From Bacteroidia bacterium (GTDB lineage Bacteria; Bacteroidota; Bacteroidia; UBA8524): a stretch of DNA of 64,000 nucleotides. How positions within the stretch are numbered: position 1 is the stretch's first letter; each line of letters starts with the position of its first letter. The stretch lies in the NCBI GenBank assembly GCA_037968475.1, contig JBBKVO010000024.1, forward strand, positions 68,067 through 132,066. The letters run 5' to 3'. Shown in pieces: positions 12,555 through 55,039 of the stretch. The notes beneath the pieces are model-generated. The model worked only from the letters and a program-made list of their open reading frames with translations. It searched no databases and was not told where the DNA came from. Both the position numbers and the translations under genes were made by a program.

Positions 12555-12567
12555 ACTATTTTAGTTT

Positions 12568-12697: not shown

Positions 12698-12768
12698 ACT
12701 GAAATACAGGGCAATAAATTCTTATTTAGACAGATTACAAATTATATTTTTAATGTATGGATTTCTGG

Positions 12769-16696: not shown

Positions 16697-16828
16697 GATT
16701 TTTTTTGAATTATTTGATAGGTAAATTCAAAAATAAAAGAAGCTGCAAAATATATTCTACGTATAAATACCCATTTATATTTAGAAAGAATACAAAATGT
16801 TAAAAGGGATTTTTTTAGCCCGTATACT

Positions 16829-19892: not shown

Positions 19893-20513
19893 TTACCTTT
19901 CTTTTAGCACCATATCAATACACATTACGGCTGCTAAGATTAATTGACGTAAGGGACTGTCTTGTGGCACGGCCTCATTTATGTTAAGTACGTAGTTATC
20001 GGCACTGGTAAACAGCTCTTTGCCCAAGCCTGCCCACTTTTTGGTTACGTGTGCAAACTCAAGATTATCTTTTATAAACCTAAAATCCCAACCCGTCCAT
20101 TTGCCTTTTAGCATACAAAGTGGATTACCATTGGGGTCTAGCACCTCAAACTTGCCGCCAATAGAAAACAGTTTTTGTTTGAAAAGACCAATTACTTTGT
20201 CGTTTTCGTCCAACACTTCAACTTTTGAAAGCCAAAAGTTTACACCACGTTTCACACGTACCACCGTTTGCCCATCAGGAGTTTTCACTACAACATTAAA
20301 CGGAGTCATAGTTTTGTAATCGGTGAAGCGAAAAATTTTAGTGAAAAAACCAAGATTTTCCTCTCTGCACGTCATTATCATCTCATTGGTTTCAGGGTTA
20401 AAAATATCGTAGTTGTTAGAGGCTTTAAACATGCCTACGTGTTCTTTTACAAAGAAAAGATTGCGGTTTAATATCGGGTTCATTAGGGTTGTAAATAATG
20501 TGGCAATATGCAA
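19893..20513 (-). CDS. LURP-one-related/DUF567 (tubby C-terminal-like, scramblase fold) family protein
   Basis: 206-aa soluble protein. Pattern-level resemblance only. Confidence 0.3.
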   Translation of the reverse strand: MHIATLFTTLMNPILNRNLFFVKEHVGMFKASNNYDIFNPETNEMIMTCREENLGFFTKIFRFTDYKTMTPFNVVVKTPDGQTVVRVKRGVNFWLSKVEVLDENDKVIGLFKQKLFSIGGKFEVLDPNGNPLCMLKGKWTGWDFRFIKDNLEFAHVTKKWAGLGKELFTSADNYVLNINEAVPQDSPLRQLILAAVMCIDMVLKER

Positions 20514-39021: not shown

Positions 39022-40506
39022 TCACTCATTACAAACGCCTGCTTCCACCAAATAGTGTCGGTCTTCACGCTCAAAGTAATAGCGCACATTAGGTTTAATT
39101 ACAGAATCAGGGTGTTGCAGCCGTTCAGTTGGGTTTACACCCTCCCACAACGTTTCATCACATATCACCATACGCGGGTTAGTCCACGCATTGTATACAC
39201 TGCTTATCCATAAGTAATCGTGCTTATGAAATGCTCCCAACAGCCAATAAGGCGGGGCAACAGCATAGTTGTGTGGCAATACATGGGCTACGGCTTCAAT
39301 TTCTTTTACATACGGTTTTTCATCCGCAGGGTTGGGTGCAGTCAAAATACCAACAGCATTTTTGCTAAAAGAATAATTCACTTCTGTTTTTAGCAACACT
39401 ACCTGTGCGCCAATTAAAACAATAGCTACAATACTATTGGCCGTAATAATTTTTTTGGGCGAAGAAAACCAAAACCGTCCCTGCACAAGGCTATATACAG
39501 CCACGGCCAAAAACAACGTAAACGATAGCGAAAAACGAGGAACCCAAGTGAGCGAAAACCCGTTTTGTGGCAAGTATACCAAGCCCGATACCATGTTTAC
39601 TGCAAGCACAGGCATGAGTATCAAAACCCACCACAGCAACAGTTTGGGCTGTATGCGCACAAACAGCAGCCATACCAATAGGGGCAATTGCATTAAAGCA
39701 AAACTTTTTAGTATTGAGCCTATGTATTCACTTTTAACCCTGCTGTCCATTTCAGCCCATCGGGCAAAAGCCTTGTCCAATCGGGTTTCGGCAAAGTGGT
39801 TTTTATATTTTAGGTAGATAATACCCAATGCAAAAACCGCGATATATACCAAGCCCCACACCAACGATTTTTTTAGCCATTGCTTTTGGGTGATGCGTTG
39901 CGAAATCCACTCCCAAGTAAAATATAAAGTGTGCAAGCAAGCGGCCAATACTGCCCCGTCCTCTTTAACAGAAATAATAAAAAGTGCACTGATAATGCTA
40001 ACCCATTTTTGCTGCCTGTATAGCGAAAGGGAGAAAATAAACCCCAGCGGGACATACAGCATTTCTATATGGAAGCCAAACCAAGTATCATCGTACAACC
40101 AAAAGGAATATGGGCCAAGAAACAGGGCAAGAAGAAAAACGGTGATACGGGCTTTGTTCACTTCGGCTTTTTGTAAGGTTTTAAAGCAGTATATAAATGC
40201 CCAAACATAAAGCCCCAATTGTGCCACAAACAGCCCATAAGCTCCAAGCCAAAGCACCAGAGGCCCCAGCAATAGGTTAAAAAAATAGTTATGATACAAA
40301 GCATGGTGGCCATAGTTATTCTCAAACATAGCAGGGCGACCTTGCAGCCAGCTACGGCTTATTTGTATGTGCGAGAACAAATCGCTTTGGTAAGTGTGCT
40401 TATTAAATAAAGAGAGTTTTGCAGCAAAAAACCAAAGCAGCATTGCCAAACCAATGCCCACAACGGCTATTGCCCAATACTGCTTTTTTTTACTGTGCTC
40501 TGCCAT
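39022..40506 (-). CDS. Large polytopic membrane protein, DUF2079-like (putative GT-C-type glycosyltransferase)
   Basis: 494 aa with ~12 TM segments. The periplasmic-loop pattern SDLFSHIQISRSWLQGRP...HHALYHNYFF resembles DUF2079. It is a tandem paralog of 40506-42005. Confidence 0.4.
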   Translation of the reverse strand: MAEHSKKKQYWAIAVVGIGLAMLLWFFAAKLSLFNKHTYQSDLFSHIQISRSWLQGRPAMFENNYGHHALYHNYFFNLLLGPLVLWLGAYGLFVAQLGLYVWAFIYCFKTLQKAEVNKARITVFLLALFLGPYSFWLYDDTWFGFHIEMLYVPLGFIFSLSLYRQQKWVSIISALFIISVKEDGAVLAACLHTLYFTWEWISQRITQKQWLKKSLVWGLVYIAVFALGIIYLKYKNHFAETRLDKAFARWAEMDSRVKSEYIGSILKSFALMQLPLLVWLLFVRIQPKLLLWWVLILMPVLAVNMVSGLVYLPQNGFSLTWVPRFSLSFTLFLAVAVYSLVQGRFWFSSPKKIITANSIVAIVLIGAQVVLLKTEVNYSFSKNAVGILTAPNPADEKPYVKEIEAVAHVLPHNYAVAPPYWLLGAFHKHDYLWISSVYNAWTNPRMVICDETLWEGVNPTERLQHPDSVIKPNVRYYFEREDRHYLVEAGVCNE

Positions 40507-42005
40507 TATTTTGGGGTTATACCGGCCTCAATAAGGTAGTGTCGGTCTTCACGTTCAAAATAAAACTTTACTTCGGGTCTAATTACCGAGTCGGCGTGCT
40601 GCAACAGTTGGTCGGCAACAACATTTTCACTATTGCTGTTATCGCATATAATCATGCGCGGCCACACACGGGCATTAAAAATCACATTCGTCCATATCAC
40701 ATCCTGTTTATGGAAATAGCCAAACATAGGATATGGCGGTGCAACGGGGTACATTTCAGGGAGCACTTGCGCCACCTTTCGCACATCGTTCCAATAGGGG
40801 TAGTAATCGTGGGGAGGAGTATCTCTAAAAATTTTTTGCGTGTTTTGGTGGTACGAGTAGTCAATTTCTGATTTCAGTAATTTTTTTTGCCAATTGAAAA
40901 TACCATAACCTACAACTATTGCTGCTACCCAACACACAAAAGCAGGACGAAACCAAGCCCTTGAAAACATAAGCAGTGAAAATGCGCCCATAGCCAAAAA
41001 AAGACTAAGAATAAGCGAAAAACGAGGTACCCAAGTGAGTGAAAAACTTTGCGCAGGGAAGTATACAAACCCTGAAATAAGGTTGACGATAATAATGGGA
41101 ATTGAAAACGCTAACCACCACAACCATGCCTTATAATTTAGTTGGCGGATGAAGAATAAGAACAAAGCAAAGGGCAACAACATTAGCCCGAACGAAGAAA
41201 AAACACCTGTAAAGTAAGCGCGTATATCTTGTGTGCTTTGCAGGCTTATCCGCTCAAACGATTCGGTAATTCTATCGTAGCCAAAATTGTTTTGCGCTTT
41301 TAGGTAATAAACACCTGCCACAAAAAAGGCTACCCAAACCCCACCCCACAATAGCGATTGCAGTAGCCAGCGTTTTGCGGTTATTTTTTTAGCGGTCATT
41401 TGCAAGGCTATAAACAACAGGTGTATGCAGGCTACCATTACGGCTCCGTCTTCTTTTATACTAAGCATTAGCAAGGCTGCCAATGCACTAACCCAATGTT
41501 GTTTTTTGTATAGCGAAACAGCAAACACAAACCCTAGCGGTATGTATAGCATTTCGGTATGAAAACCGTAGTGCGGATCATCGTACAACCAAAAAGAAAA
41601 AGGCGCACAAAAAATGGCAAGGTAAAAAACGGCAGTAAGCAGGCGATGGTTTAGGCTTTCATCTTTCTTATAAACGGTAGGGAAAGTATATACCAAAGCC
41701 AAAACATACAGCACAAACTGGGTAATGAAAATACCTGTTGCACCCCACTGTTTGGCCAAAGGCCCCATTAGCAAATCAAAAAAATAATTATGCAGTTTGC
41801 TATGGTCGCCATAGCAATTTTCGTGCATCAATGGGCGACCTTGCAGCCAGCCTCGGGCTATTTCTAGGTGCGTATATAAGTCTGATTGGTAGCCCATTTT
41901 ATTAAAAATGGTAAGCTTTGCAGCAAAGTACCAAACCAATATCCCCAGTGAGGTAAAAAACACTGCTAGTCCAAAGAAATCACGTTTTTTAAAAAGCTCT
42001 ATCAC
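40506..42005 (-). CDS. DUF2079-like polytopic membrane protein, paralog of 39022-40506
   Basis: 499 aa. Same architecture and conserved C-terminus (EREDRHYLIEAG). Its stop shares 1 nt with the downstream start, and its start overlaps the upstream gene by 4 nt. Confidence 0.4.
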   Translation of the reverse strand: MIELFKKRDFFGLAVFFTSLGILVWYFAAKLTIFNKMGYQSDLYTHLEIARGWLQGRPLMHENCYGDHSKLHNYFFDLLMGPLAKQWGATGIFITQFVLYVLALVYTFPTVYKKDESLNHRLLTAVFYLAIFCAPFSFWLYDDPHYGFHTEMLYIPLGFVFAVSLYKKQHWVSALAALLMLSIKEDGAVMVACIHLLFIALQMTAKKITAKRWLLQSLLWGGVWVAFFVAGVYYLKAQNNFGYDRITESFERISLQSTQDIRAYFTGVFSSFGLMLLPFALFLFFIRQLNYKAWLWWLAFSIPIIIVNLISGFVYFPAQSFSLTWVPRFSLILSLFLAMGAFSLLMFSRAWFRPAFVCWVAAIVVGYGIFNWQKKLLKSEIDYSYHQNTQKIFRDTPPHDYYPYWNDVRKVAQVLPEMYPVAPPYPMFGYFHKQDVIWTNVIFNARVWPRMIICDNSNSENVVADQLLQHADSVIRPEVKFYFEREDRHYLIEAGITPK

Positions 42006-43396
42006 TTAGTTTTTTCTTCCGTTTGTTTGCGCACCAAAATATACTGCCATACCAAAAGTGCAGCGGCCATTGGCAATAGCCATATCATACGTGCCATATA
42101 CCTATCTACCACGCCCGAAAACGAGGCGCACACCACACCATTCACCACACTGCCTATAAACACCGTTAGGGCAAAGGCAAAAGCGCTGCTATATACAGGT
42201 TTGCGATAAAAAAACACTCCAAAAATCACAAGTAGTAATAACGAGGCATACACCACCCACCGCTGTATGGTAGACTGTGTTTCAAAATACAATGTTTGGG
42301 TATACTGCACTGCATTTTGGTATTGAGGCATCTCTCGACCAAAAAAATCTTTTATTCCACCATATACAGGAGAACCTTCGGCCATTGGGGTGAGGTAGCC
42401 CAAATCAAACATAAAAAGTTGTTTCCAACCGTCTTCCACACATTTTTCTATCAAAACAGCGCGGGCAGGGCCGTAGGCCAAAATACCTTTTACAGTTTTA
42501 CCATAAGCCGCATCTTTTTCAATCCAGCATTCGCCCCAACCTTTGGCTACACAGGCACTATCGTATAGGGGGCTGTTGTTATACTCCCACAAAAAAGCTA
42601 CGGCGTGTGGCGGCAGGTTGTTTTTTACAGCACAAAGGTCGGCAGGTGCATCGGGGCATTTATGGTCGAGGTATACTTTGGCTGCCCCTGTTTCTATGCA
42701 GCGCGCCACCAAAAACACATTGCCCGTGCGCGAAGGTCTAAAACCCACACCCAACCAATAGTTGAACAAGCAAATAACCAACCACGCGGCCAAGCCCCAA
42801 AACACCACCCGTTTATGGGTTTTGTTTCTAGCAGCAAAAAAAGGTTTTTTCTTAAAAATAAGTCGCAACACAAAAAGGCCAATGGCCAGAATACTAAATA
42901 TAAGCAGGTGCGAGCTATGCACCGATATTGAAAATAACAATACCACTACCAACCAAAAACGGTGTTTGGGGGCTATGTCTTTTCCTGCTACCAAAGTAGC
43001 AAAAGCCAATAGTGCTATGGGCGAGAATACATCGGCCATTATTTGGCTGTGGTTGTGCGATAAGCCTGTTAACAAGCCCAAACCTGCCAATAAAAGACAA
43101 GTAGGAATAAAGGAATTTTTTATCTGTAAAATGTATTTTACCGCCATGCGGGCAGCAAACAGTAACACCAACGATTGCGCAAACAATACCAACCAAAGGC
43201 TAAACCACATACTGCTGTGGCGCACAAACCAACTGTAAAAATAAGGTCTGTCTACAGGGACATAGTGTATAAAACCCGCTACTATATACGTGCCTGAATC
43301 AGAATAGAGCATGGGATAGCCATTGAGCAGGGCAGGAAAATTAATTGCTGCCAGCGCGACTATAAAAGCCAATATTTTTAGCACCCATTGCCTCAC
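42002..43396 (-). CDS. Hypothetical polytopic membrane protein with a Cys-rich periplasmic domain
   Basis: 464 aa. ~6 N-terminal TM segments, a 150-aa hydrophilic segment with 8 Cys (CIETGAAKVYLDHKCPDAPADLC...CVAKGWGEC), then C-terminal TM segments. Confidence 0.35.
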   Translation of the reverse strand: MRQWVLKILAFIVALAAINFPALLNGYPMLYSDSGTYIVAGFIHYVPVDRPYFYSWFVRHSSMWFSLWLVLFAQSLVLLFAARMAVKYILQIKNSFIPTCLLLAGLGLLTGLSHNHSQIMADVFSPIALLAFATLVAGKDIAPKHRFWLVVVLLFSISVHSSHLLIFSILAIGLFVLRLIFKKKPFFAARNKTHKRVVFWGLAAWLVICLFNYWLGVGFRPSRTGNVFLVARCIETGAAKVYLDHKCPDAPADLCAVKNNLPPHAVAFLWEYNNSPLYDSACVAKGWGECWIEKDAAYGKTVKGILAYGPARAVLIEKCVEDGWKQLFMFDLGYLTPMAEGSPVYGGIKDFFGREMPQYQNAVQYTQTLYFETQSTIQRWVVYASLLLLVIFGVFFYRKPVYSSAFAFALTVFIGSVVNGVVCASFSGVVDRYMARMIWLLPMAAALLVWQYILVRKQTEEKTK

Positions 43397-43494
43397 GTTG
43401 CCAAATATACGGTTATAAGTACATTTGGGGTATTTTTAAGTATTTTTGGCGCAATAGCGCACAAAAAAGTATCTTATTTTAGCAAAAGAATTAA

Positions 43495-44850
43495 GTGCAA
43501 AATGTAAAATCATACAGTTTTTGGGCATTTTGTGCCTTAGTAGTACTATACGTAATACTGTTTTTTAACGGGCGCGAGTGGATGAAACACGATGCACTGC
43601 GCCACGATATGACGGCGTATTACGCCTACCTGCCTGCTGTTTTTATTGACCAAGAAATAGAGCTAAACAGCGAGGAAACCCGCAACAACATGATGTATTG
43701 GTGGAGTGTGGAAGCTCCCGCGCGCGAAGGCCGCATTATCCGTATGAGCATGGGGGTGAGCTACTTGCATTTGCCCTTTTTTCTGCTGGCACACGTAACG
43801 GCCAAACCATTGGGACACGAGGCCAACGGGTTTAATGCCCACTACTACTTTTTTATACTTATTGGCAGTGTGTTTTATGCCCTTGCAGGGTTTTGGTTGC
43901 TGCGTAAACTGCTATTACTTTTTTTTGGCGATGGAGTTACCGCCATTACCCTGCTACTTATTGCCACAGCTACCAACTTGGTATACTATGCCCTTAGCGA
44001 AGGGGCTATGAGCCATGTATACAATTTCTTTTTAGTGGTGTCTTTGTTATACCTCACCGTAAAATGGCATCAAAAGCCTAAGTGGGGCAATACTATTTTG
44101 TTGGGCTTGGTAATGGGCATTATTACGTTATCGCGACCTACTAATTTATTGTTGGCTTTAGTGCCCGTGTTGTACAATGTATATTCAAAAGAAACACTAC
44201 TGCAAAAACTACAATGGGTGCAAAAGCACTGGCACTATGTGCTAACGGCGCTTGTGTTTGCATTTTTGGCTTTGCTGCCCCAATTGCTCTACTGGCATTA
44301 TATGAGCGGTAAGTGGTTATACTATACCTATGGCGATGAAGGCTTTTTCTTCGCCCATCCACATATTATTGATGGCTTGTTTAGCTACCGCAAAGGTTGG
44401 TTTGTTTATACCCCCATAATGGCACTTGCGACATTGGGCATAGCGGTAGTTTGGAAACAAGCCAAAAAATGGGCATTGCCGTTATTTATAGTACTGCCCG
44501 TGTTTGTGTGGTGCGTTTACAGTTGGTGGACATGGTGGTATGGCGGCAGTTTTGGCTCGCGACCGATGATAGATATTTACGGGTTAATGGCCATTCCTTT
44601 GGCGGCTTTGATTACTTGGGCACTAAAAAGAAAATGGACGGGTGCAACGTTTTGGCTGTTGGGTGCATTCTTTATATACCTTAATATATACCAAACGTAC
44701 CAGTACAAAAAAGCGTTGATACACTGGGATAGTATGACCAAAGAGGCCTACTGGGCGGTATTTTTAAAGAAACAATACCCTGATAACTACGGCGATTTGA
44801 TAAAAACCCCTGATTACGAAAAAGCGAAAAAAGGAGAAGATGAGTACTAG
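43495..44850 (+). CDS. Polytopic membrane protein, putative GT-C glycosyltransferase (ArnT/PMT-like)
   Basis: 451 aa with ~11 TM segments. Aromatic-rich loops. Pattern-level resemblance only. Confidence 0.35.
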   Translation: MQNVKSYSFWAFCALVVLYVILFFNGREWMKHDALRHDMTAYYAYLPAVFIDQEIELNSEETRNNMMYWWSVEAPAREGRIIRMSMGVSYLHLPFFLLAHVTAKPLGHEANGFNAHYYFFILIGSVFYALAGFWLLRKLLLLFFGDGVTAITLLLIATATNLVYYALSEGAMSHVYNFFLVVSLLYLTVKWHQKPKWGNTILLGLVMGIITLSRPTNLLLALVPVLYNVYSKETLLQKLQWVQKHWHYVLTALVFAFLALLPQLLYWHYMSGKWLYYTYGDEGFFFAHPHIIDGLFSYRKGWFVYTPIMALATLGIAVVWKQAKKWALPLFIVLPVFVWCVYSWWTWWYGGSFGSRPMIDIYGLMAIPLAALITWALKRKWTGATFWLLGAFFIYLNIYQTYQYKKALIHWDSMTKEAYWAVFLKKQYPDNYGDLIKTPDYEKAKKGEDEY

Positions 44851-46015
44851 CATAGCCAAAAAAAGCATCCTGTTTATACTTTTAGCACTTAGTTTTTATA
44901 CTTCGCACGCTATTGACGGGCGTTTGCTGATAAGTACCACGCCTAATTTTTTTGATAGGTGGTATAAAAGCTATACCGAAATACCCATGGCACATATACC
45001 CCAAACACAAACCGTATACAAGCGGCAGGTGTTTTATATGTTGCCTTTTATCACCGGTTTTTCGGCTACGGATAATAGGCCTAATATTCGTTATGATGTA
45101 AACATTAGCCAGAACGGAAAATCGGTATACGAGCAAAAAGCAGTTACTGGACTAACCAAAATTGTTAACGATACTGCCGCCATTTTTTTGTGCGAAACGG
45201 TGATTAATTATGAGTTTTTAGAAAACAGCCCCAATGGCACTTATACCATTACCCTATTGGTGCACGATAATATAGCCCAAACCACCACCCAATTAACAGC
45301 CGATATTACCCTAAGTACCTACAAGTTTAACGAGCGAAAATATACCAATGCCGATAGTTTTTTTGTGTGGCAAAACTACTACTATGAGGGGATAGACCCT
45401 GATAGAGAGATTGACGGGTTAATGTTTTTCTCGTTCCCGCAAATGCAAAGCAATGCTGAGAAAACCCTAGCACTATTAGCCTATTTTGAAGATCTTTTTA
45501 AAGGGAAAACCTATTTACTAAAAGAGCTGGAAAATATATTTCTTTCTCGCAATGCGGATGAACGACTTACCATGATACACGTACTAAACTTGGTAAGCTA
45601 TATGCCCCAAAGCCTGCAAAACAAGTTTACTGACGAAGAGAAAAAATTTTATGCCGACTTAAAAGGGTTTGGACTGCCAGTGATACCAGAAGGGGCAGTA
45701 AACAACCACTTTTTGTTGAATATACTTTGGTCTAAATTTTTTGCAACGGGCAGTTACAACTATGCTAAAAAAATTGCTGAAACCTTTGAACTAGCCAAAT
45801 ACAAAGGCGCGCTTACAACGTTTAGCGAATCAAAACAAACGGAAGTCGATAAGCAAGCTGCTTTTTTAGAAACCGTTTATCAAAAGAATATAGAAGATAT
45901 GTTGAAGCGTTTGCCCAACCATCCATTGTTCAACGGGTATTGCCTGTATATGATAGATAGGGGCGATGTGAGTGAGTTGGTAAAAAAAGAATTAGTATCA
46001 GTTGTGGTGCGATAA
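44840..46015 (+). CDS. Hypothetical secreted protein with a signal peptide
   Basis: 391-aa ORF overlapping the upstream gene by 11 nt. No family recognised. Confidence 0.35.
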   Translation: MSTSIAKKSILFILLALSFYTSHAIDGRLLISTTPNFFDRWYKSYTEIPMAHIPQTQTVYKRQVFYMLPFITGFSATDNRPNIRYDVNISQNGKSVYEQKAVTGLTKIVNDTAAIFLCETVINYEFLENSPNGTYTITLLVHDNIAQTTTQLTADITLSTYKFNERKYTNADSFFVWQNYYYEGIDPDREIDGLMFFSFPQMQSNAEKTLALLAYFEDLFKGKTYLLKELENIFLSRNADERLTMIHVLNLVSYMPQSLQNKFTDEEKKFYADLKGFGLPVIPEGAVNNHFLLNILWSKFFATGSYNYAKKIAETFELAKYKGALTTFSESKQTEVDKQAAFLETVYQKNIEDMLKRLPNHPLFNGYCLYMIDRGDVSELVKKELVSVVVR

Positions 46016-46090
46016 GCAACCCCAATCATCATTTGCCCATCTAATCAAAATATATTTCGGTTATTTGCACTACAACTACCCTGTATACTT

Positions 46091-47269
46091 TTGATGAGTG
46101 AAGATAATAACAACTTTTGGCAGCGTTTGTGGGCATTCCTTACCCCTGCACGCATTGGCTTGCTATATATTATAGCCTTTGTGGCCGCATCAATAGCTCA
46201 ATACTACAAACCCCAAGCGGGCGAGTATACCAATTATAACAACTACATCATTTTTAAACAGGCATTTTTTCACCTGTTGCACGGTAAAGACCTTTACATA
46301 CTGCACCCTACCGAATGTTGGGATTTATTTAAGTACAGTCCCGCCTTTGCTTTGTTTATGGGCGTTTTTGCATGGCTGCCCGATATTGTAGGGCTTTCGT
46401 TATGGAATTTACTAAACGCAATGGTGTTGTGGTATGCGTTTACCCAATTGCCACAAGCCAATAGCAAACAAAAGGCCTTTATGTTGCTGTTTGTATTTTT
46501 AGAACTGTTAACCAGCATACAAAACTCGCAAAGTAATGGGCTAATAGCAGGACTTTTATTATTAGCCTTTGTACGACTTGAAAAAGGCGATGTAGTATGG
46601 TCGCCGCTGTATATAATGCTCACCGTATTTATAAAAATATTTGGAGTAGTAGCCTTTGCATTGTTTTTGCTGTATCCTAAAAAGCCAAAATTTATAGCCT
46701 ATAGCATACTGTGGGGTGTAGTACTTTTGGTGTTGCCCATAGTAGTAACAGGAAGCGACGGGCTGTTGATGCAATACCAAAGTTGGTGGAATATGCTAAA
46801 AGAAGACCACTCAGCATCCGTTGGATTATCCGTTATGGGGTGGCTAGAGACTTGGTTTGGCTATAACGGCAGCAAAACGCTTATTACCTTTTTGGGAGTT
46901 GTGTTGTTTTGTCTTCCGCTTATAAAAATTAAACACTATGCACACTATATGTACCGAGTGCTGTTGTTGGCATCGGTATTGTTGTGGGTAATCATCTTTA
47001 ACCATAAGGCCGAATCGCCCACCTTTGTAATAGCTATTACAGGCGTAGCCCTTTGGTTTTTTATGCAGAAAAGAGAGACTTGGAAAATTGTGGTAGTGGT
47101 ATTGGCGTTTGTGTTTACATCGCTATCGCCCACCGATTTGTTTCCGCACTTTGTGCGAAAAGAATTAGTAGAACCCTTTGTACTAAAAGCAGTGCCCTGT
47201 ATATTGGTTTGGGGCATTATTGTTTACGAAATGTTGTTTAAAAAATATGAGTTGTATAAAAGTGAGTAG
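46091..47269 (+). CDS. DUF2029 / glycosyltransferase family 87-like (polyprenol-phosphate-mannose-dependent mannosyltransferase-like) membrane protein
   Basis: 392 aa. The FKQAFFHLLHGKDLY...FKYSPAFALFMGVFAWLP region fits the GT87/DUF2029 pattern. Confidence 0.5.
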   Translation: MMSEDNNNFWQRLWAFLTPARIGLLYIIAFVAASIAQYYKPQAGEYTNYNNYIIFKQAFFHLLHGKDLYILHPTECWDLFKYSPAFALFMGVFAWLPDIVGLSLWNLLNAMVLWYAFTQLPQANSKQKAFMLLFVFLELLTSIQNSQSNGLIAGLLLLAFVRLEKGDVVWSPLYIMLTVFIKIFGVVAFALFLLYPKKPKFIAYSILWGVVLLVLPIVVTGSDGLLMQYQSWWNMLKEDHSASVGLSVMGWLETWFGYNGSKTLITFLGVVLFCLPLIKIKHYAHYMYRVLLLASVLLWVIIFNHKAESPTFVIAITGVALWFFMQKRETWKIVVVVLAFVFTSLSPTDLFPHFVRKELVEPFVLKAVPCILVWGIIVYEMLFKKYELYKSE

Positions 47270-48368
47270 AATAATTTTAACCCTAACATTAACTCTTTTA
47301 ATGGTGGCAGCACAGGCTCAAACCCTTAAAGAAAAAGAGTATGAAGGTACAACCCTTATGGCCGAAGGCGAAAGCTATAATAATGGTAAAAGGCAAGGCC
47401 AATGGATACTATACAACCTTAACGGTGAAAAAGAACAAGAAGGCAAATACAAAGATGGCCTGAAAGAAGGTGCATGGAAACGCTACGACCCAACTACCAA
47501 AAATAGTATTGAAGATGTAATTTATAAAAGGGACACTGCTAACGGAGCCTACAAAAGTTATTATGCGGATGGTAAAAAAGCCGAAGAAGGTGCATTTGAT
47601 ATGGGTTACCAAACAGGAGTATGGAAACAATACTTTAGCACCGCAAACAATTACCTTGCATCAATAGGGGAGTTTAAAAAAGGAGAAAAAGAAGGTAAGT
47701 GGACGTACTATTTTGATGGTGCAGGCTTGCAGGTGTACGAAACAGGTTTGTATGCAAACGGACAGCGCAATGGCCAATGGCAGATATATTATCAAGGAAC
47801 GGCAAAAGCTCGCCAAGCCGAAGGCAATTATAAGAAGGGAGTAAAAGAAGGCGTATGGACTTTTTATAACGAACAGCCTAATACCTTACTATCGCGTATA
47901 CGCCATATAGCTAATATGGAGCAGGATACTTTTACCACCTATTACCCAAGCGGTAAAATACACGAGCGTGGAGCCTATGTAAACGGGCAATACCATGGTT
48001 TGTACGAAGAGTTTTATGAAAACGGTGAGCGAAAAACAGAAGGAGCTTTTACCTACGGGGATAAAACGGATGACTGGAAGTTTTTTTATGAAACGGGTAT
48101 AATGAAAATGCTAGGCAGCTATTATAAAAGCAAAGCCAATGGTATGTGGAAATATTACCGCGATAATGGCTCGTTAGAGAAAGAGCAGGAGTATAAAAAC
48201 AATGCGATTGACGGGAAATATATAGAGTATTTTCATAACGGAAAAATTCTTAAAAAAGGGCAAATGACTAATTTTATGAAGCAAGGCAAGTGGGAAGAAT
48301 ACGATATAACCGGTAATTTGATGAAGATAGAAATTTGGAAAGATAACCAGTTGATTGATAGTCAATAA
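47247..48368 (+). CDS. MORN-repeat (YwqK-like) secreted protein
   Basis: Repeated G.W..Y..NG....EG.YK.G.K.G.W motif at least 8 times. Signal peptide from Met at 47247. Confidence 0.55.
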   Translation: MSCIKVSRIILTLTLTLLMVAAQAQTLKEKEYEGTTLMAEGESYNNGKRQGQWILYNLNGEKEQEGKYKDGLKEGAWKRYDPTTKNSIEDVIYKRDTANGAYKSYYADGKKAEEGAFDMGYQTGVWKQYFSTANNYLASIGEFKKGEKEGKWTYYFDGAGLQVYETGLYANGQRNGQWQIYYQGTAKARQAEGNYKKGVKEGVWTFYNEQPNTLLSRIRHIANMEQDTFTTYYPSGKIHERGAYVNGQYHGLYEEFYENGERKTEGAFTYGDKTDDWKFFYETGIMKMLGSYYKSKANGMWKYYRDNGSLEKEQEYKNNAIDGKYIEYFHNGKILKKGQMTNFMKQGKWEEYDITGNLMKIEIWKDNQLIDSQ

Positions 48369-50675
48369 CTATATACCAAGCCAATATACCAGTTTTATTA
48401 CAACACCTCTATCCCTCACCCTGAAATCGGGAAGGGCACGTCCTGCATTATTTATAGGGTTATAATTATCTCCCCATACTACAAATAAATCGCTCATGGG
48501 GGCAAAACGCCATTGTAGGCGGGTATTAATATTTACGTTTTCTATTTGGGTATTGTATTGCACAAAAGTGGTAAAAAACACACTACGACTAAAGGTAAAC
48601 TCCATACGGGGCCCTATTAATGTTAGGTTGGTATAGCCGTAGGGTTGCGGCAGCTTTATCTCATTAGTCTGAAAATTTAAACTAAAATTACCCCAAGGTT
48701 GTGCACGGTAATACAAGTTGCAGCCATAGGCTAGTTGTTGGCCATTAAAAAATTCACCATACGATACAAAAGCGCTCCAATTAAACAGCTTACGACGGTT
48801 TGAGGTATAACTGGCGCTAATATTATTATAGTGATAGTTGCCCACAGGCAAAGGCACATTACCCGTCCCCGTTATATCAATAGGAAAGTATAAATAGGTT
48901 TGGTTTATCTTATACTCAATCCCTATTTCAGCCGTATTTAAAAATATTATTTGCAGGTAGGGGTCGTATATAGCATCGTTTGAGAAAAGCGAAGAATCGG
49001 CATACCAACTTGCATAAATGCCAGGCTTTATCGCATATATTTTGCTGTTTTTAGGGTAAAAGGCATGGGTTATTTCAGGTTCTAATCGCCAATAGGTCAT
49101 AGGCACTTCAATATTACGGGCACCATCGTATACCCTTTGGCGGGGCACAAAACCCACATTAGCTTGGTAGTTATTGCCCACATACTCGTGGTTCCACATT
49201 ATAAACCAACGGGCGGTGCTATACCGCAACCACGATGCGTGTGCATAAGCATTTTTAGGCTGATTGGGCGAAAACGAGTGGTGAAAGAAAAACTTGCCCT
49301 GCCATTTATTATCAGCACTTGCCAAATTATAATCTAAACCCACAATACGGTTATAGGCATTGGCAGTACTGTCGGCACCATTTAGGCTTTGCTTGTTTAC
49401 CACAATAGCGGCAATATTGCTGCGGGCAAACACGTGCCTTTGCACGGCGGCTACCGTAAAATTTTCAGGGTTGGCAACTATGCCGCCTTCGTTATAGGCT
49501 TTGGTTTGAATATTCATAAGCCCCATGCGCCAGTTTTTGTCTAGTTTTCCGCTAAGCCGTGCGCCTGCTACAATGGGTATGGTAACACTGCTGCCATTTT
49601 TTAGCCCTATACGGCGCGAGAAAAACGGCCGTATTTTACTAAATCCAAAACTGCCAAACAGGTCAGAATTTTCAAGAAAAAACTGGCGTTGTTCAGGAAA
49701 AAACAAGCTAAAACGGGTAAGGTTCGTTACCTGCCTGTCTACATCCACTTGAGAGAAATCGGGGTTTACCGTCAAATCAAGATTTAGCGATGGGGTAACA
49801 GATACTTTGGCATCAAAACCTGCATCAACCTTGTGCACTGCTGCTGTTTGTGCTGCATAGTTTTGGCTAAATCTACTAATGGCATAAGGAATAATAGAGA
49901 CATTAAGCCCTGCTTTGGGTGCGGGTGCATCCCACAAAAGTTTGCCTGTATTGGCCAGTGAGGCTACATCAAAATTACGTGGAACGCGAGACCAACTGCT
50001 GTTTTCGTTTATTTTTTGGTTGTTGCGCGAAAAATTTACGCCCCACTGCACTGCACCTTGTTTATACCTAAGTGTTTTAAAAGGTATTTTAAATTCGGCT
50101 ACCCAATAGCCCTCGTGCCGTTTCACTTCTGAAAACCATTTGTTATCCCAGTTTATGGTAGCGCCAAAGCTGCCGCCGTTTTGTATCAGTCCCTCTTGCT
50201 GTGCACCATAAGGGTTTACGGCAAAAGTGAAACCGTTGGTTTTATCGTTAAAAGGGTCTATAAAAATGGCAAAGGCATCGTTGGTAGTATATGTAAAATC
50301 GCGTTTTAATGATGATATTACATAGTTCCCTTCAAATCCATCGTAGCAAATAGCTGCCACATAAATATTGTGCTCATCGTAAGCCATCATCACCTCGGTT
50401 TTGGTGCGGGCAAGCGAGGTATCGTAGGGATATTGTTGCCAAAAATTTCCTGTTTTTTCAACCCGTTGCCAAGTGGCTTCGTTTAGTTCTCCATCAATTT
50501 TTATGGGTTCTTGGGTTTTGCTTAAAAAATAGCTGCGCGCACTATCAGGCTCGGTTTGCGCTTGCGCTGCACCTGCAATGAATAGTAAAAGAAAGAAAAA
50601 GTATATATATCTGCCCACAATATGTCTCAAAAATAACAAAAGAGTCGGCTTAATAGCTCTTTTTAGACTAAGCAA
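48369..50675 (-). CDS. CBM9-like / DUF5916 domain outer-membrane protein
   Basis: 768 aa. The N-terminal [12 protein letters not shown]...[10 protein letters not shown] region is CBM9-like, and the large C-terminal beta-rich domain is typical of DUF5916. Confidence 0.5.
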
Positions 50676-51411
50676 ACAAATTGTACTTCAAAATGCACCA
50701 AATGGCTCTAAAACCATCGCGCCAGCCAATTTTTTTACCTTCTTCATAAGTGCGTCCGTAGTATGATATTCCTACCTCGTATATACGTATCTTGGGTATG
50801 CGGGCAATTTTTGCAGTTACTTCGGGTTCAAAACCAAAACGTTTTTCTTTTAAATCCAACCCTTGCACAACCTCGCGGCGAAACATTTTGTAGCAAGTTT
50901 CCATATCCGTTAGGTTCAGGTTGGTAAACACGTTGTTAAGCAGGGTTAAAAACTTATTGCCTATGGTGTGCCAAAAGAAAAGTATGCGGTGTGGGTTTCC
51001 GCCCATAAAACGGCTACCGTACACCACGTCGGCAAAGCCGTCGGTAATGGGTTGTAGCAAAATATTAAACTCTTGTGGGTTATACTCAAGGTCGGCATCT
51101 TGTATCACTACTATATCGCCTGTGGCTACTTTTATACCTGTGTGCAGGGCTGCGCCCTTGCCTTTGTTTACCTCATGCTGAAAAAAAACAATATTTAAGT
51201 CTTTGTTTTCGGCCATATAGCGTTCTACAGCCTCAACAGTATCGTCAGTACTGCAATCGTTTACTATTATCACCTCTTTTTCCATACCACTACCAAGCAC
51301 CACATTTTTCACCTTATCAAGTATTAGGTGTATGGTTTTCCCTTCATTATAGGCCGGAATAACTATCGAAAGTGTTTTGAACATCCCAAAAAATTTGTGC
51401 AAAGAAAACAA
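50668..51411 (-). CDS. GT2 glycosyltransferase, dolichyl/polyprenyl-phosphate sugar synthase (DPM1-like)
   Basis: IVIPAYNE ... IVNDCSTD ... DADL/DxD motifs. The probable start is an internal Met (MFKTLSIV, ~51384). Confidence 0.7.
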
Positions 51412-51493
51412 ATAAACGGCAATTAGTGGCTTTTCGCCCTCATATATGCGCCAATCAACGGTTTTTATATAAATTTGTTTTTAGTAGAAACGT

Positions 51494-52237
51494 ATGAAAA
51501 ATATAGTATTAGCCCTTTTGCTGTTAATTAGCAGTGTAGCATTTTCTCAAAAAGCAAAAACAACAAGTACTAGCCCTACTGTTGAAACGTATAAAAAAGC
51601 CTATTATATGGCACTTCGCTGTGGTGATGCACAAGCGGCAGTAAACAGCTTATATCTTATAATAGCTGAAGAGGGCGACCGCAGCCCATACAAAGACAGT
51701 CTTTTGCTGATGTATTTTGATATGGCCTCGTTTGTACAATGCGAGCGTGTAGCAAGCGAATTGGCGAAAACCTATTCTGATTCTATTGAAAAAGGGAAAA
51801 ACCTTACCATACTTGAAATTTTGGCTATATCGCAAGCATCATTGGGTAAGGTGAAAGAAGCCATAGAGTCGTTTGATAAATTGCTTTCTAAAACCAACGA
51901 GATGTACCATGCTTATCGATTGGCCGAGTTACAATACACCTACAAACGTGTGGGTGAAGCTTTGCAAAGTGTAATGCGAGCCGAAAACCTAACCAATAGC
52001 ATGAAAGCTCCAGTGAAAATTGAGGTAGAAAAAAACAAGGTACAGGAGGTGAAATTGGAAGCTGCTGTGTTAAATCTTAAAGGCTATATTTTGCTTGAAG
52101 ACTATCCTGATAAGAAAACAGAAGCTATTGAAGCCTTTACCAAAGCCCTTGAAATACAACCCAACTTTTTATTAGCAAAAAATAATTTGGCGTATGCTAC
52201 CGGCGGCACACCAGAGGGCACACCAGAAAAGAAATAA
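51494..52237 (+). CDS. TPR-like repeat protein with a signal peptide
   Basis: 247-aa helical-repeat ORF. Confidence 0.4.
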   Translation: MKNIVLALLLLISSVAFSQKAKTTSTSPTVETYKKAYYMALRCGDAQAAVNSLYLIIAEEGDRSPYKDSLLLMYFDMASFVQCERVASELAKTYSDSIEKGKNLTILEILAISQASLGKVKEAIESFDKLLSKTNEMYHAYRLAELQYTYKRVGEALQSVMRAENLTNSMKAPVKIEVEKNKVQEVKLEAAVLNLKGYILLEDYPDKKTEAIEAFTKALEIQPNFLLAKNNLAYATGGTPEGTPEKK

Positions 52238-52309: not shown

Positions 52310-53617
52310 TTACTGTTTAATAATCTTTATAGTGTTGTTGCCTGCACGCAGCATATAAATACCTGTGGCTAGGTCATCAATTTGTAATTCGGTTTTTGTG
52401 GTTTGCCCTGCAAAAAACTGCACGGCTTTTGTTTTTAATACTTTGCCTGTTATATCCGTTAATACTATATCAGTATTGCCCTCAGTTGCAGCGTTTAACT
52501 CTACAAACAATGTTTGGTTGGCAGGGTTGGGGTAGGCATTTAGTGCTGTACCCAATTTTTTTGCACTGCCAATGCTTGTAGTGGTAGTGGGTGCAAAAAT
52601 CATGCGGTGGGTGGGTGTAGCAGCCCACGATGTAGGCGTAGCTCCTGCACGATAAATTTTTGCAGTATCGTATTGGTTATTGGGCAGGTAGTTTAAAATA
52701 ATACTATCGTTATAGTTTTCTTGCCCTGCTTGAAAATAGCGTGATGTTATAGCACTAAGTTTTGATGCTGTATAATAATGACTATATATACCAAAAAGTT
52801 CTAAGCTATCATTTTGACGATACCAGTCAAAAACTTTATCAATTTTACCATTTTGAGTATAGGTATATTCTTTCATTCCTGTTTTAGCCAAAGGTCCGCC
52901 TTGGTTAAAATTATAAAGAGAAACGATACGCTTAAGCTCACCTGTGGTATAATACTCGTACAACGATTGTGAAACTGTATCAGTGCCAAAGCGTTGGGGG
53001 ACATTACGTTCAACACTTTCTGTGCATCTACCATTATTATCGCAGGTATAATATGTAACTACGCTACTAGCAGGGTTTAAATACACCGCAGAGTCTATAC
53101 GCCTTTTATTATTGGCATCGTATAGAAAAAATGTTTTTGACGACGGCGAGAAAGAGCTTCCGCTTTTGTAATAAAAATCTACTTGTTTTTCTTTCTTGTT
53201 GGGGTAGTAGGCATACACCGCTTTAATTTTGAAGTTGGTTCCTGTATAGCTAACTTCAAGCTCATTCTCCTCAACCAAATTATTACTATTGTATATGCTG
53301 CTGTATTCAGCTTTGTAATTATTTTCCCAAAAGCTATTTGCCGTATCCCAATACGCGGTTGATAATTCAGCAAAACCACCAAAAGCATCGCGGCTGCTCA
53401 CTGCCAACTCAACATTTCTCCATATTCCTTGTGCGGCTATAAACTCTTCCCTTGTCCACCCTTCGGTTTCAGTTCTCAAAATGTCTCTATAAGCCAACGG
53501 AGGTTCTACCACCGGTTTATAAAAAGGTGCACCGCTAGATAGTTCATCTTGGGCGGTTGCCAAGTTAGACATACTTAATAGGATGCCTAAAAAAAGAGAT
53601 GTAAGAATTGTTTTCAT
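52310..53617 (-). CDS. Secreted protein with YD-repeat-like motifs and a T9SS C-terminal sorting domain
   Basis: 435 aa. C-terminal LFVELNAATEGNTDIVLTDITGKVLK...GIYMLRAGNNTIKIIKQ is a type-A Por sorting domain. Internal YxYxxNGR/K repeats. Confidence 0.65.
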   Translation of the reverse strand: MKTILTSLFLGILLSMSNLATAQDELSSGAPFYKPVVEPPLAYRDILRTETEGWTREEFIAAQGIWRNVELAVSSRDAFGGFAELSTAYWDTANSFWENNYKAEYSSIYNSNNLVEENELEVSYTGTNFKIKAVYAYYPNKKEKQVDFYYKSGSSFSPSSKTFFLYDANNKRRIDSAVYLNPASSVVTYYTCDNNGRCTESVERNVPQRFGTDTVSQSLYEYYTTGELKRIVSLYNFNQGGPLAKTGMKEYTYTQNGKIDKVFDWYRQNDSLELFGIYSHYYTASKLSAITSRYFQAGQENYNDSIILNYLPNNQYDTAKIYRAGATPTSWAATPTHRMIFAPTTTTSIGSAKKLGTALNAYPNPANQTLFVELNAATEGNTDIVLTDITGKVLKTKAVQFFAGQTTKTELQIDDLATGIYMLRAGNNTIKIIKQ

Positions 53618-53725
53618 AATATAATGAGTATAAAAATGGGTTTAATGCTGCATTGTTTAAAAACCGCCGTGCAGTTTGCTATAACACGGCGGTTTATATT
53701 ATAGAAGTATGTAAAAAGACAAGGC

Positions 53726-55039
53726 TTATTGTTTTACTATCTTAATGGTTTTGCTACCAGCCCTCAGCATATAAATGCCCGTAGCCATATCGTCAAATTG
53801 TATTTGAGTTTTGATAGACTGACCAGCAAATAGAGTTAGTGTTTGGGTTTTTATAATTCGGCCTGTCATATCTGTTAAAATCAAATCAGTAGAACCGTTT
53901 GCAGAGGCGTCTAGCTCAACAAACAATGTATTTGTTGTTGGGTTGGGGTAGGCAGTTAAATTGGTTGTGATGTTGTTAACTTGTGGTATGCCTGTAGTGC
54001 TTTTATCAAACAACAAGCGCAAACTATAGTTGCTTTCCCAAGCTATATCCCCGTCGCCTACATAATAATGCGCCGTATCGTACCCGCCATTGGGTAAATA
54101 GTTAATCACAATACTGTCTTCGGTTCCCCAGCCTGTAAGGGCGGGTAGCTTAAACACCATAGAAGCAAGCTTGTTTTGTGCATTATAGTAATGTTTATAA
54201 GACATATCAGCATTCATTTGTGTAGAGCCTGTGTCTTTTAAATAGTTCACCATCTCATCAATTTTACCGGCCGGGGTGTATGTGAAAGTATATAGCGAGG
54301 CATCTATTCTCATACCATTATTTTGCTTATATTCAATAAGTTTAGCGTTCAAACGGCCATCAACAGTATAAGTGTAAGAGATTGCAGTAGTTGTGTCAAA
54401 TACATTATTTGCAGATAGAATTTTTTCCACCTGCCTAACACAGCGGTTGTTATTGTCGTATTCGTAATAAACCATTAAATTATTGGTAGCCGTTGGTATG
54501 TTTGCACCAGAGTCTAGCACGCGGTTTCCGCTACCATCATATTTCATATAAATATGCGTAGTAGGCACATAACCCCCGCCGTTTCTAAAACTTACAACAG
54601 ACTCCTCTAGTCTGCCTTGCGTGCTGTATGTATTATCAAACTGCACCGCTCCTATATAATTAGGCATTGTTCGCTCCCATGCAACCTGCAATACATTATT
54701 GTTAGCGTCTTTTTGGTAATTATATAGGTTGTTATAAGCGTTTTGCCATGTTTGTGTGCCGGCATCCCAATACAAGGTCTTCACCTCAGTAAAATCGCCG
54801 TCAGCATTTTTAATATTCTCTACCTTTTCATAATTATTCCACCTTAGCGGCGGTGTGGTTCTGTATTGCCAAATCCACCCGGTAGAGGTTGTGCGAAGCA
54901 AATCCCAATATAAAAGCGGAGGAGAAACAACAGGATTGTTGGGGGTTACACCATACCTCAATACATCTTGCCCAATAGCTTGCCCGCCTAGGCTTAAAAG
55001 CATACCAATGCCCAGTAAGCGATAAATAAAAGTTTTCAT
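53726..55039 (-). CDS. Paralogous secreted protein with YD-like repeats and a T9SS C-terminal sorting domain
   Basis: 437 aa. C-terminal LFVELDASANGSTDLILTDMTGRIIK...GIYMLRAGSKTIKIVKQ. Confidence 0.65.
   Translation of the reverse strand: MKTFIYRLLGIGMLLSLGGQAIGQDVLRYGVTPNNPVVSPPLLYWDLLRTTSTGWIWQYRTTPPLRWNNYEKVENIKNADGDFTEVKTLYWDAGTQTWQNAYNNLYNYQKDANNNVLQVAWERTMPNYIGAVQFDNTYSTQGRLEESVVSFRNGGGYVPTTHIYMKYDGSGNRVLDSGANIPTATNNLMVYYEYDNNNRCVRQVEKILSANNVFDTTTAISYTYTVDGRLNAKLIEYKQNNGMRIDASLYTFTYTPAGKIDEMVNYLKDTGSTQMNADMSYKHYYNAQNKLASMVFKLPALTGWGTEDSIVINYLPNGGYDTAHYYVGDGDIAWESNYSLRLLFDKSTTGIPQVNNITTNLTAYPNPTTNTLFVELDASANGSTDLILTDMTGRIIKTQTLTLFAGQSIKTQIQFDDMATGIYMLRAGSKTIKIVKQ

Follow-up and report, generated by a model that had tools for sequence, protein, structure and literature searches.

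Gene content of the locus

The window analysed here is a 64-kb stretch of DNA from an uncultured Bacteroidota genome. Nine ORFs, designated g1 to g9, are located exactly at 39022-51411, where the first-pass annotation had placed them. Families were assigned by Pfam and NCBIfam profile searches. The earlier calls GT87 (g6), MORN (g7), CBM9/DUF5916 (g8) and GT2 (g9) were matched by Pfam, and no Pfam match was obtained for g1, g3, g4 and g5. According to a hydropathy scan, g1, g2, g3, g4 and g6 are polytopic, and g5, g7 and g8 carry N-terminal signal-like segments. From the gene order, in which stop and start codons overlap, three operons are deduced: g3-g2-g1, g4-g5(-g6-g7) and g9(-g8). The first of them is read from the overlaps of 1-4 nt that g2 has with both g1 and g3.

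The 98-bp intergenic region between g3 and g4 (43397-43494) is a divergent control region and, at the same time, the scar of an ~1.7-kb deletion. On both of its strands, TAnnTTTG motifs are present, which we take to be the Bacteroidetes -7 promoter element. Using blastn and alignment, no counterpart in the window was found for positions 8270-9971 of L085, an 87%-identical relative. The deletion took out a DUF6311-type membrane-protein gene kept in L085. The annotations of L085, L086 and L001 each include a DUF6311 gene.

g5 (44840-46015, plus strand) encodes a 391-aa secreted protein with an N-terminal RbmA-like FnIII beta-sandwich. The gene shares its first 11 nt with the 3' end of g4. The g5 family profile matches the FnIII domain of Vibrio cholerae RbmA with an E-value of 1.2e-5, and the C-terminal part is of no recognised type. 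At E<=1e-3, 264 representatives were found. g5 is a lineage-specific partner of g4: It adjoins g4 in close relatives only, and its relatives elsewhere have no adjoining GT-C genes. g7 (47220-48368, plus strand) encodes a 382-aa secreted MORN-repeat protein (MORN_2, 46.2 bits). It also matches the NCBIfam model of the LIC20035 adhesin with 90 bits, which is below the cut-off of 250. It always occurs with g6, and its orthologues are located 3' of g6 in L085, L087 and L088. g8 (48369-50675, minus strand), downstream of g9, encodes 768 aa with a signal sequence, a CBM9-like domain (CBM9_1, 34.9 bits) and DUF5916 (80.8 bits). It is presumed to be a carbohydrate-binding protein of the outer membrane. 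Its presence is variable, with orthologues in L085 and L088 only. Divergently from g9, a secreted 247-aa protein with a signal-like N-terminus and TPR Pfam matches is encoded at 51494-52237 on the plus strand. TPR orthologues are found beside g9 in L085, L087, L088 and L003 and in no distant locus. The TPR protein is a conserved lineage neighbour whose membership of the system is uncertain.

The polytopic proteins and the GT-C fold

g1 (39022-40506) and g2 (40506-42005) are encoded on the minus strand and comprise 494 and 499 aa, respectively. They had been described as two tandem DUF2079-like paralogs. The paralogy is borne out by 47% identity over the full length. The family call is less firm: In the Pfam search, g2 scores 27.8 bits (E 1.8e-6) against DUF2079, narrowly below the gathering score (GA) of 28.2, and g1 has no match of its own. 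Seven of the 28 homologue clusters of g2 have a precomputed PF09852 match. At E<=0.01, DUF2079 is matched by 10 of the 28 g1/g2 family members (best 2.8e-9), with no competing family. Neither as a single sequence nor as a profile does g2 match a sequence in the PDB. DUF2079 is presumably a member of the Pfam GT-C clan. Judged by these matches, g1 and g2 are probably GT-C glycosyltransferases of a divergent DUF2079 subfamily.

g3 (42002-43396, minus strand) is a 464-aa membrane protein with a predicted GT-C fold. It is composed of seven N-terminal TM helices, a periplasmic helical loop of ~155 residues and three C-terminal TM helices. The eight Cys previously attributed to a periplasmic domain have to be corrected: The soluble loop 215-371 holds six (C233, C247, C255, C282, C290 and C319), the whole protein nine. 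Invariant in the family are C247 and C255 only. The family comprises at least 471 metagenome loci and has no Pfam model.

No other GT-C of the cluster is as widely conserved as g4 (43495-44850, plus strand; 451 aa). The g4 family, too, has no Pfam model and is large, with more than 1,299 clusters spread over Bacteroidales, Flavobacteriales, Saprospiraceae and other Bacteroidota. The predicted fold is GT-C, and it is only in this respect that the former label 'ArnT/PMT-like' applies, as neither the PMT nor the PMT_2/ArnT profiles match g4. A MIR domain is likewise absent. With these results, a GT39/PMT protein O-mannosyltransferase was rejected. g4 matches ALG12, whose acceptor is a lipid-linked glycan, better than the PMTs.

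This bears on the proposal that the GT-Cs act PMT-like and glycosylate T9SS cargo or other secreted proteins before T9SS export. Two genes for T9SS C-terminal-domain (CTD) proteins adjoin the cluster at 52310-55039, so the adjacency noted earlier is real. A functional link, however, is unsupported. CTD-protein genes accompany the cluster in the window and in L003 only and are absent beside it in L087, L088 and the distant loci; the L085 sequence ends just past the TPR gene and is uninformative on these neighbours. SprA is located 33 kb from the cluster. Furthermore, the known O-glycosylation of Bacteroidota follows a different logic, en bloc transfer from an Und-PP-linked glycan. Taken together with the relation of g4 to ALG12, this makes glycosylation of T9SS cargo very unlikely.

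g6 (46091-47269, plus strand; 392 aa) matches Pfam PF09594 (GT87) with 58.7 bits at a GA of 25, and 230 of 237 profile positions are covered. A PDB search yielded no sequence match to PimE. Of six lineage genomes, four have g6: the window and, at the same position, L085, L087 and L088. It is absent from L003 and L001.

The conserved N-terminal 7-TM module common to solved GT-C enzymes is present in the predicted folds of g3 and g4. In addition, an acidic residue is conserved in the first extracytoplasmic loop. It corresponds to D33 in g3 (27 sequences) and D38 in g4 (60 sequences), both just after TM1, and to D42 in the loop after TM1 of g1/g2 (28 sequences). In each family alignment, from which its position was taken, this Asp is invariant, and it is a candidate equivalent of the catalytic Asp of solved enzymes. 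This argues for catalytic GT-Cs. Among the g1/g2, g3 and g4 families, hhalign found no relationship. The view that the polytopic proteins are GT-Cs can thus be kept for at least three of the five, g3 and g4 as judged by predicted fold and g6 by its Pfam GT87 match, and is probable for the DUF2079-like g1 and g2.

The GT2 protein g9 and its pairing with g4

g9 (50668-51411, minus strand) is a GT2 protein of 247 aa (Glycos_transf_2, 125.6 bits). Its best NCBIfam matches are AglJ and PgfS; ArnC, PpgS and a halobacterial Dol-P-hexose transferase are also found among the top nine. The highest score, 104.9 bits for AglJ, is below the cut-off of 325, and all 24 NCBIfam matches fall below theirs, so that g9 passes no equivalog cut-off. 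In the PDB, the best match is Pyrococcus furiosus DPMS (5mlz; 3.7e-18, residues 10-228), followed by ArnC and GtrB. QDADLEY of g9 aligns with MDADLQH of DPMS, and the DAD motif is conserved. The alignment stops at chain residue 236 and leaves the C-terminal remainder of the 374-residue DPMS chain unmatched. g9 has no hydrophobic segment in its 247 aa and hence no C-terminal TM helices such as those in GtrB, ArnC and P. furiosus DPMS. Because its top NCBIfam and PDB relatives are polyprenyl-phosphate glycosyltransferases to which the catalytic domain aligns throughout, g9 is probably a polyprenyl-phosphate sugar synthase of the DPM1/AglJ/ArnC/PpgS type. The earlier assignment therefore stands insofar as g9 is closer to these enzymes than to other GT2 proteins, but not at the level of an equivalog.

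A strong g9-like GT2 (>=300 bits) is found at most 10 kb from a g4 homologue in 20 of 57 species loci, compared to ~0.2 expected. Clustering of g9 and g4 exceeds chance, and this pair forms a widely conserved core. In seven of the 20 loci, both genes are within 80 bp, and in 18 they are on the same strand. No g9-like gene is nearby in 31 of the 57 g4-family loci. Loci with the pair contain on average 3.45 polytopic ORFs, the others 1.78. In 34 independent metagenome loci, a g3-family gene has a g4-family neighbour in nine and a strong g9-like neighbour in five.

The missing equivalog match and membrane anchor would also agree with an ordinary Leloir GT2 that uses a soluble or Und-PP-linked acceptor. 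In this case, the polytopic proteins would use other donors or be in part non-catalytic, and there would be no common pathway. The GT2 family is huge, generic members are common near envelope loci, and weak g9 matches (40-65 bits) are indeed scattered through many loci. Moreover, the GT-C fold includes the non-enzymes PIG-U and GAB1. However, it is orthologue-level g9 and not generic GT2s that adjoin g4 homologues, and the top matches in NCBIfam and PDB are polyprenyl-phosphate synthases. TM-less synthases of this kind exist, e.g. PpgS (NCBIfam model of 226 positions) and human DPM1. The cluster contains no Wzx, Wzy or initiating transferase; neither Wzx nor an initiating transferase was found in 39022-52237 or the flanks, where g9 is the sole Leloir-type glycosyltransferase. 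Together with the invariant loop-1 Asp, these points make an ordinary GT2 very unlikely.

The whole arrangement recurs in close relatives only (60-91% identity; for g4, 64-91% in L003, L085, L087 and L088). Since it is confined to them, the full nine-gene order is weak evidence for shared function. Within this lineage, g1, g2 and g3 are always together, and g6/g7, g8 and the extra DUF6311-type gene come and go. The unit of nine co-localised genes suggested before therefore shrinks to the broad g9/g4 pairing, as g5 to g8 are limited to the narrow lineage.

A proposed periplasmic glycosylation module

On balance, the cluster is likely to be a periplasmic glycosylation module that needs a lipid-phosphate-sugar donor. 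As homology suggests, g9 would act as a peripheral cytoplasmic GT2 that charges undecaprenyl (polyprenyl) phosphate with a single sugar taken from a nucleotide sugar. Subsequently, the lipid-linked sugar would have to cross to the periplasmic leaflet. There, five GT-Cs from four sequence-unrelated families (g1/g2, g3, g4 and g6) may use this donor via the Asp in their first periplasmic loop, with an envelope molecule as target. They might add different linkages stepwise to one variable envelope glycoconjugate, for instance LPS, a different glycolipid or a polysaccharide. Such a scheme would resemble the mycobacterial PIM/lipomannan or the ER-lumen ALG steps and not a single Gtr-type side branch. 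g5, g7, g8 and the TPR protein could be lineage-specific periplasmic or outer-membrane factors for binding and handling. The stepwise building of one glycoconjugate is the weakest part of this scheme. It is suggested by the number of GT-Cs served by a single synthase and by the differences in GT-C content among close strains. The comprehensive version, in which a TM-less DPM1-like synthase feeds several GT-Cs, a strain-variable lipoglycan or other glycoconjugate is built sugar by sugar in the periplasm of many Bacteroidota, and g4 and g3 each found a new GT-C family, is tentative.

Alternatively, the donor made by g9 could feed GT-Cs that modify different envelope molecules, such as lipid A/core, O-antigen, peptidoglycan or proteins, and the genes would be grouped by a common donor and common regulation. 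The lack of sequence relationship among the four GT-C families would fit this, as would the single gain and loss of GT-C genes among close strains and the many different combinations in which these families occur outside the narrow lineage. Furthermore, g3-family genes are mostly solitary: In 29 of the 34 metagenome loci, they are not accompanied by a g9-like gene. The close spacing of the operon genes, which overlap, the constant company of g1, g2 and g3 and the roughly twofold number of polytopic genes at synthase loci speak against separate targets, but are not decisive. We consider separate targets doubtful.

For the crossing step of the favoured module, no GtrA-, MATE-, Wzx- or SMR-type Pfam family was detected among the cluster or flank genes, and the neighbour genes that recur across 60 loci include no flippase either. 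Apart from a DedA gene (7155-7802), 31 kb away, the window has no small multi-TM ORF. With no flippase encoded, the described system is incomplete. Genes for sugar-nucleotide synthesis are likewise absent from the cluster.

The combination of a GT2 lipid-phosphate-sugar synthase with a periplasmic GT-C is an established principle (PMC11127046). In the three-component systems, GtrA/GtrB/Gtr* for O-antigen glucosylation, PPPRS, MATE and GT136 in C. youngae and CsbB/GtcA/YfhO for LTA/WTA, a cytoplasmic GT2 likewise makes the polyprenyl-phosphate sugar, and a GT-C transfers it at the outer face (PMC11127046). g9 aligns with GtrB and ArnC, but lacks the TM helices of GtrB. Synthase and GT-C genes are linked in those systems and here as well (20 of 57 species loci, seven of them directly adjacent; the window and four close relatives). 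By contrast, those systems have a dedicated flippase gene, one GT-C per synthase and other GT-C families, whereas the present cluster has no flippase gene and encodes five GT-Cs that belong to four families, and g3 and g4 are without Pfam model.

The mycobacterial systems (Ppm1 with PimE/GT87, MptA/B/C; PpgS with Rv3779) belong to a different phylum and envelope. Their polyprenyl-phosphate-mannose GT-Cs are unrelated in sequence to those of the cluster apart from GT87. Their genes are dispersed, whereas here they form one cluster without phosphatidylinositol or arabinan genes. To the ER-lumen enzymes ALG3/9/12 and ALG6/8/10, which act with DPM1, sequence identity is merely 8-13%, and the cluster has neither an OST-type transferase (WWDYG-type domain) nor genes for Und-PP-glycan assembly. 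Lipid A/core modification by ArnC/ArnT (also LgmA/LgmB, FlmF/FlmK and RgtE/RgtA-D) differs in that ArnA/B/D, a deacetylase and ArnE/F are missing here and the PMT_2/ArnT profiles do not match g4. The general O-glycosylation of Bacteroidetes (lfg locus) is periplasmic and affects T9SS cargo (PMC11611037). It shares phylum and compartment with the module proposed here. At the lfg locus, however, cytoplasmic Leloir glycosyltransferases and Wzx build a lipid-carried oligosaccharide that is transferred en bloc. Such genes are absent from the cluster, and an lfg-type locus was rejected because of the missing Wzx and initiating transferase and with g9 as the only Leloir-type enzyme.

No description of such a system in Bacteroidota was found in the literature. 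As the mechanism is well known, the earlier term 'undescribed' fits the families and the architecture, but not the principle. The cluster is real and is best regarded as an uncharacterised form of periplasmic glycosylation in Bacteroidota that depends on a lipid-phosphate sugar. Envelope glycans of Bacteroidota have roles in host interaction, resistance to phages and predators and anchoring of T9SS cargo. To our knowledge, all characterised Bacteroidota pathways assemble glycans in the cytoplasm. If correct, the proposed module would add a donor-lipid-dependent periplasmic route for the phylum and give a function to two sizeable unannotated families, g4 and g3. Through the gain and loss of GT-C genes, strains would then have a simple way to vary their surface. 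A ready bioinformatic marker is provided by the pair of g9 and g4.

Gene layout and family assignment

The first-pass annotation had described nine co-localized genes, here g1 to g9, and the ORF listing returned all of them. On the minus strand lie g1 (39022-40506, 494 aa), g2 (40506-42005, 499 aa) and g3 (42002-43396, 464 aa). They are followed on the plus strand by g4 (43495-44850, 451 aa), g5 (44840-46015, 391 aa), g6 (46091-47269, 392 aa) and g7 (47220-48368, 382 aa) and again on the minus strand by g8 (48369-50675, 768 aa) and g9 (50668-51411, 247 aa). Overlapping stops and starts indicate three units: g3-g2-g1, g4-g5(-g6-g7) and g9(-g8). In the second of these, g5 is translationally coupled to g4. 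The 98-bp spacer between g3 and g4 carries TAnnTTTG motifs on both strands, which we take to be the Bacteroidetes -7 promoter element. A scan for sigma-70 promoters and terminators yielded sites no more numerous than in shuffled sequence.

The original family guesses were borne out by Pfam for g6 (GT87, 58.7 bits), g7 (MORN_2), g8 (DUF5916 and CBM9_1) and g9 (Glycos_transf_2, 125.6 bits), whereas g1, g3, g4 and g5 match none of its families, not even with the limit relaxed to E<=10. With DUF2079, g2 scores 27.8 bits, the cut-off being 28.2. The proposed tandem paralogues g1 and g2 share 47% identity from end to end. By hydropathy, g1 to g4 and g6 are polytopic; g9 has no membrane segment. The soluble domain of g3, thought to contain eight cysteines, has six, and C247 and C255 are the sole invariant ones.

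Putative GT-C enzymes and the GT2 synthase

For two of the membrane proteins, g3 and g4, structure prediction settles the assignment: Their predicted fold is GT-C. Among the five GT-C candidates, the initial claim is thus upheld for these two and, by its Pfam family, for g6, while g1 and g2 are probable GT-C enzymes. PDB sequence searches with g2, g3, g4 and g6 gave nothing useful, nor did PDB searches with the g4-family and g1/g2-family profiles. In hhalign comparisons between the g1/g2, g3 and g4 family profiles, probabilities stayed below 3%. This means, sequence cannot connect these families; the fold alone does. A Foldseek search of g3 against the PDB returned nothing at E<=0.001. In the family alignments, an invariant Asp follows TM1 by a few residues in each case (D33 in g3, D38 in g4, D42 in g1/g2). 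The catalytic acid of GT-C enzymes is found in the same place, shortly past TM1. The g3 model comprises seven helices followed by a loop of ~155 residues with a conserved Cys pair, and placing the basic N-terminus in the cytoplasm would make this loop periplasmic. DUF2079 is matched by 10 of the 28 g1/g2-family members (best 2.8e-9) and is the only family matched. A tie of g1/g2 to the LA_3751/LA_3752 family was dropped, as an NCBIfam scan of the g1/g2 family gave a single weak match, that of g1. Elsewhere in the window, a polytopic 506-aa protein with ~8 TM helices (25744-27264, minus strand) matches the Pfam family PTPS_related, presumably a member of the GT-C clan. Its gene is located 12 kb upstream of the cluster beside CcmF-like cytochrome c assembly genes.

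The best NCBIfam matches of g9 are AglJ and PgfS, and the top nine also include ArnC, PpgS and a haloarchaeal Dol-P-hexose transferase, all far under their equivalog cut-offs. In the PDB, the best matches of g9 are the P. furiosus Dol-P-Man synthase (DPMS; 3.7e-18), aligned over residues 10-228, GtrB and three structures of ArnC. The alignment with DPMS includes the DAD motif for metal and nucleotide sugar (QDADLEY in g9, MDADLQH in DPMS). Of the 374 residues of DPMS, those past residue 236 lie outside the alignment, so its C-terminal part is wholly unmatched. Since g9 has no counterpart of this part, it belongs to the TM-less enzymes, as do PpgS and human DPM1. Homology lends good support to a lipid-phosphate specificity of g9 without proving it; an enzyme that is not a lipid-phosphate synthase, despite the alignment with DPMS and with NCBIfam scores so far under the cut-offs, appears improbable.

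Conservation within and beyond the close lineage

Within the lineage, g4 identity is 64-91%. In locus L085, the order is g1-g2-g3, a DUF6311 gene with g4-g5-g6-g7, g8-g9 and a gene for a secreted TPR protein (in the window 51494-52237, plus strand, divergent from g9). L088 has the same order, L087 lacks g8, and L003 lacks g6, g7 and g8. L001 contains DUF6311-g4-g5 and, ~8 kb off, a g2-sized gene of 498 aa, which its length and its nearby locus tag suggest to be a g2 homologue. The polytopic DUF6311-type gene precedes g4 in the relative L085/L086 (87% identical) as well as in L001 and L088. It is gone from the window, where the g3/g4 spacer (43388-43495) is the scar of a clean ~1.7-kb deletion (compare L085 8270-9971) that retained the upstream promoter-like region. 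The stable part of the cluster therefore consists of g1 to g5 and g9, and the GT-C complement differs among close strains.

For a wider search, the g4 family profile was used with one genome per species, and 57 loci of >=12 kb were kept for the count. Neighbourhood conservation, which the first-pass annotation had proposed as a check, was found for g9 and g4: An orthologue-level g9 (>=300 bits) lies <=10 kb from the g4 homologue in 20 of these 57 loci, within 80 bp in seven of the 20 and on the same strand in 18. By chance, ~0.2 loci would be expected, assuming about one such g9 gene per genome. Draconibacterium, Mariniphaga and Vicingus (compare L015, L013 and L033) are examples of genera with adjacent g9/g4 pairs. 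Six further loci of the 57 contain a moderately similar GT2. The conservation does not extend to g5, g6, g7 and g8, which, like the TPR protein, accompany the cluster in a narrow lineage only. GT2 is the commonest neighbour family of g4 homologues (37/60 loci), followed by several other polytopic families with 6-10 TM helices, some matching PMT_2. An unannotated ~512-aa family with 6-10 TM helices and no Pfam match, second among the neighbours (16/60 loci; L013 11967-13502 and 15 other loci), may represent a further GT-C-like family. A methyltransferase-GT2 fusion of ~470 aa, missing from the window cluster, recurs in several distant genomes a few kb from g4/g9-type genes (L005, e.g. at 16163-17599, and L010, L021, L027 and L003). 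Long g4 homologues (540-660 aa) were considered as g4-g5 fusions and rejected, because the added length is not g5-like.

Seen from g3, the association with g4/g9-type genes is real but partial: Among 34 metagenome loci, nine have a g4-family gene nearby and five a strong g9-like gene. A word-limited search found 27 clusters of the g3 family, and a metagenome scan at least 471 related stretches (26-37% identity), so the family is larger than the former implied. The g5 family has 264 representatives, and its N-terminal domain resembles FnIII of RbmA, a matrix protein of Vibrio (E 1.2e-5). A role of g5 as general GT-C partner was rejected, since relatives elsewhere occur in unrelated contexts and do not adjoin GT-C genes.

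Putative function and neighbouring genes

The combination of a GT2 polyprenyl-phosphate sugar synthase with a periplasmic GT-C is an established principle, exemplified by Gtr, Arn, LTA/WTA glycosylation and the C. youngae GT136 system (PMC11127046). In contrast to these, the cluster has five predicted GT-Cs (six in relatives) from four or five unrelated families for one synthase. Furthermore, this synthase lacks a TM helix, Pfam has no profile for two of these families, and a flippase gene is absent. Functionally, the nearest analogues are the Ppm1/PimE/Mpt set of mycobacteria and the ALG enzymes of the ER lumen. PMT/GT39, Arn and the Bacteroidetes general O-glycosylation locus lfg were rejected, as the defining features of each were looked for and not found. 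A literature search on DUF2079, PF09852, DUF6311 and GT-C with Bacteroidota revealed no publication describing such a system in Bacteroidota; a paper on P. gingivalis PGN_0298 concerns UppS and is irrelevant to the cluster. The cluster is a real feature, and its initial interpretation as an undescribed glycosylation system is partly supported: No Bacteroidota publication was found, but the general principle is already established.

The best explanation, which we hold to be reasonably probable, is a periplasmic glycosylation module in which the GT-Cs would share one donor and act on an envelope glycoconjugate that probably varies between strains. Separate targets for the individual GT-Cs, which belong to several unrelated families and lie beside a single synthase, are a rather less likely alternative. 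For the shared-donor module, one may speculate that the product is bound or handled by g5, by g7 with its MORN repeats, by g8, which has CBM9 and presumably a barrel, and by the secreted TPR protein. No GtrA, MATE, Wzx or SMR-type flippase candidate is encoded in the cluster or its flanks, and sugar-nucleotide, initiating-transferase, Wzy and ligase genes are likewise not present. Across the 64 kb, a DedA/VTT gene (7155-7802, plus strand) is the sole small ORF with several TM helices. The DedA family has been linked to undecaprenyl-phosphate recycling, but as this gene lies 31 kb from the cluster, we propose no connection.

That the cluster serves to glycosylate proteins, be they T9SS cargo or others, is quite unlikely. 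The suggested T9SS link rested on SprA and a pair of cargo candidates. SprA, the T9SS translocon (110-6547, plus strand, 2145 aa; SprA_N 557 bits), is encoded at the left edge of the window and indicates that the organism possesses a T9SS. The cargo candidates (52310-53617 and 53726-55039, minus strand; 435 and 437 aa) are tandem paralogues with 37% identity that carry the Por_Secre_tail sorting domain and no further recognised domain. Their adjacency to the cluster is limited to the window and L003; they are absent in L087 and L088, and L085 ends before that position. The link is thus unsupported.

Other features of the window were also recorded. ARAGORN called a 90-nt tRNA-Gln(ttg) at 12467-12556 (plus strand), inside a 2.7-kb stretch (10320-13087) with short ORFs only. 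The call is doubtful, since Rfam at gathering score found neither a tRNA nor any other family anywhere in the window. A 206-aa protein (19893-20513, minus strand) has a match (E 2e-17) to PF03803, the Scramblase family of eukaryotic type. A bacterial WD40 beta-propeller of 309 aa (28563-29492, minus strand) has many WD40 families of eukaryotes among its strong matches.
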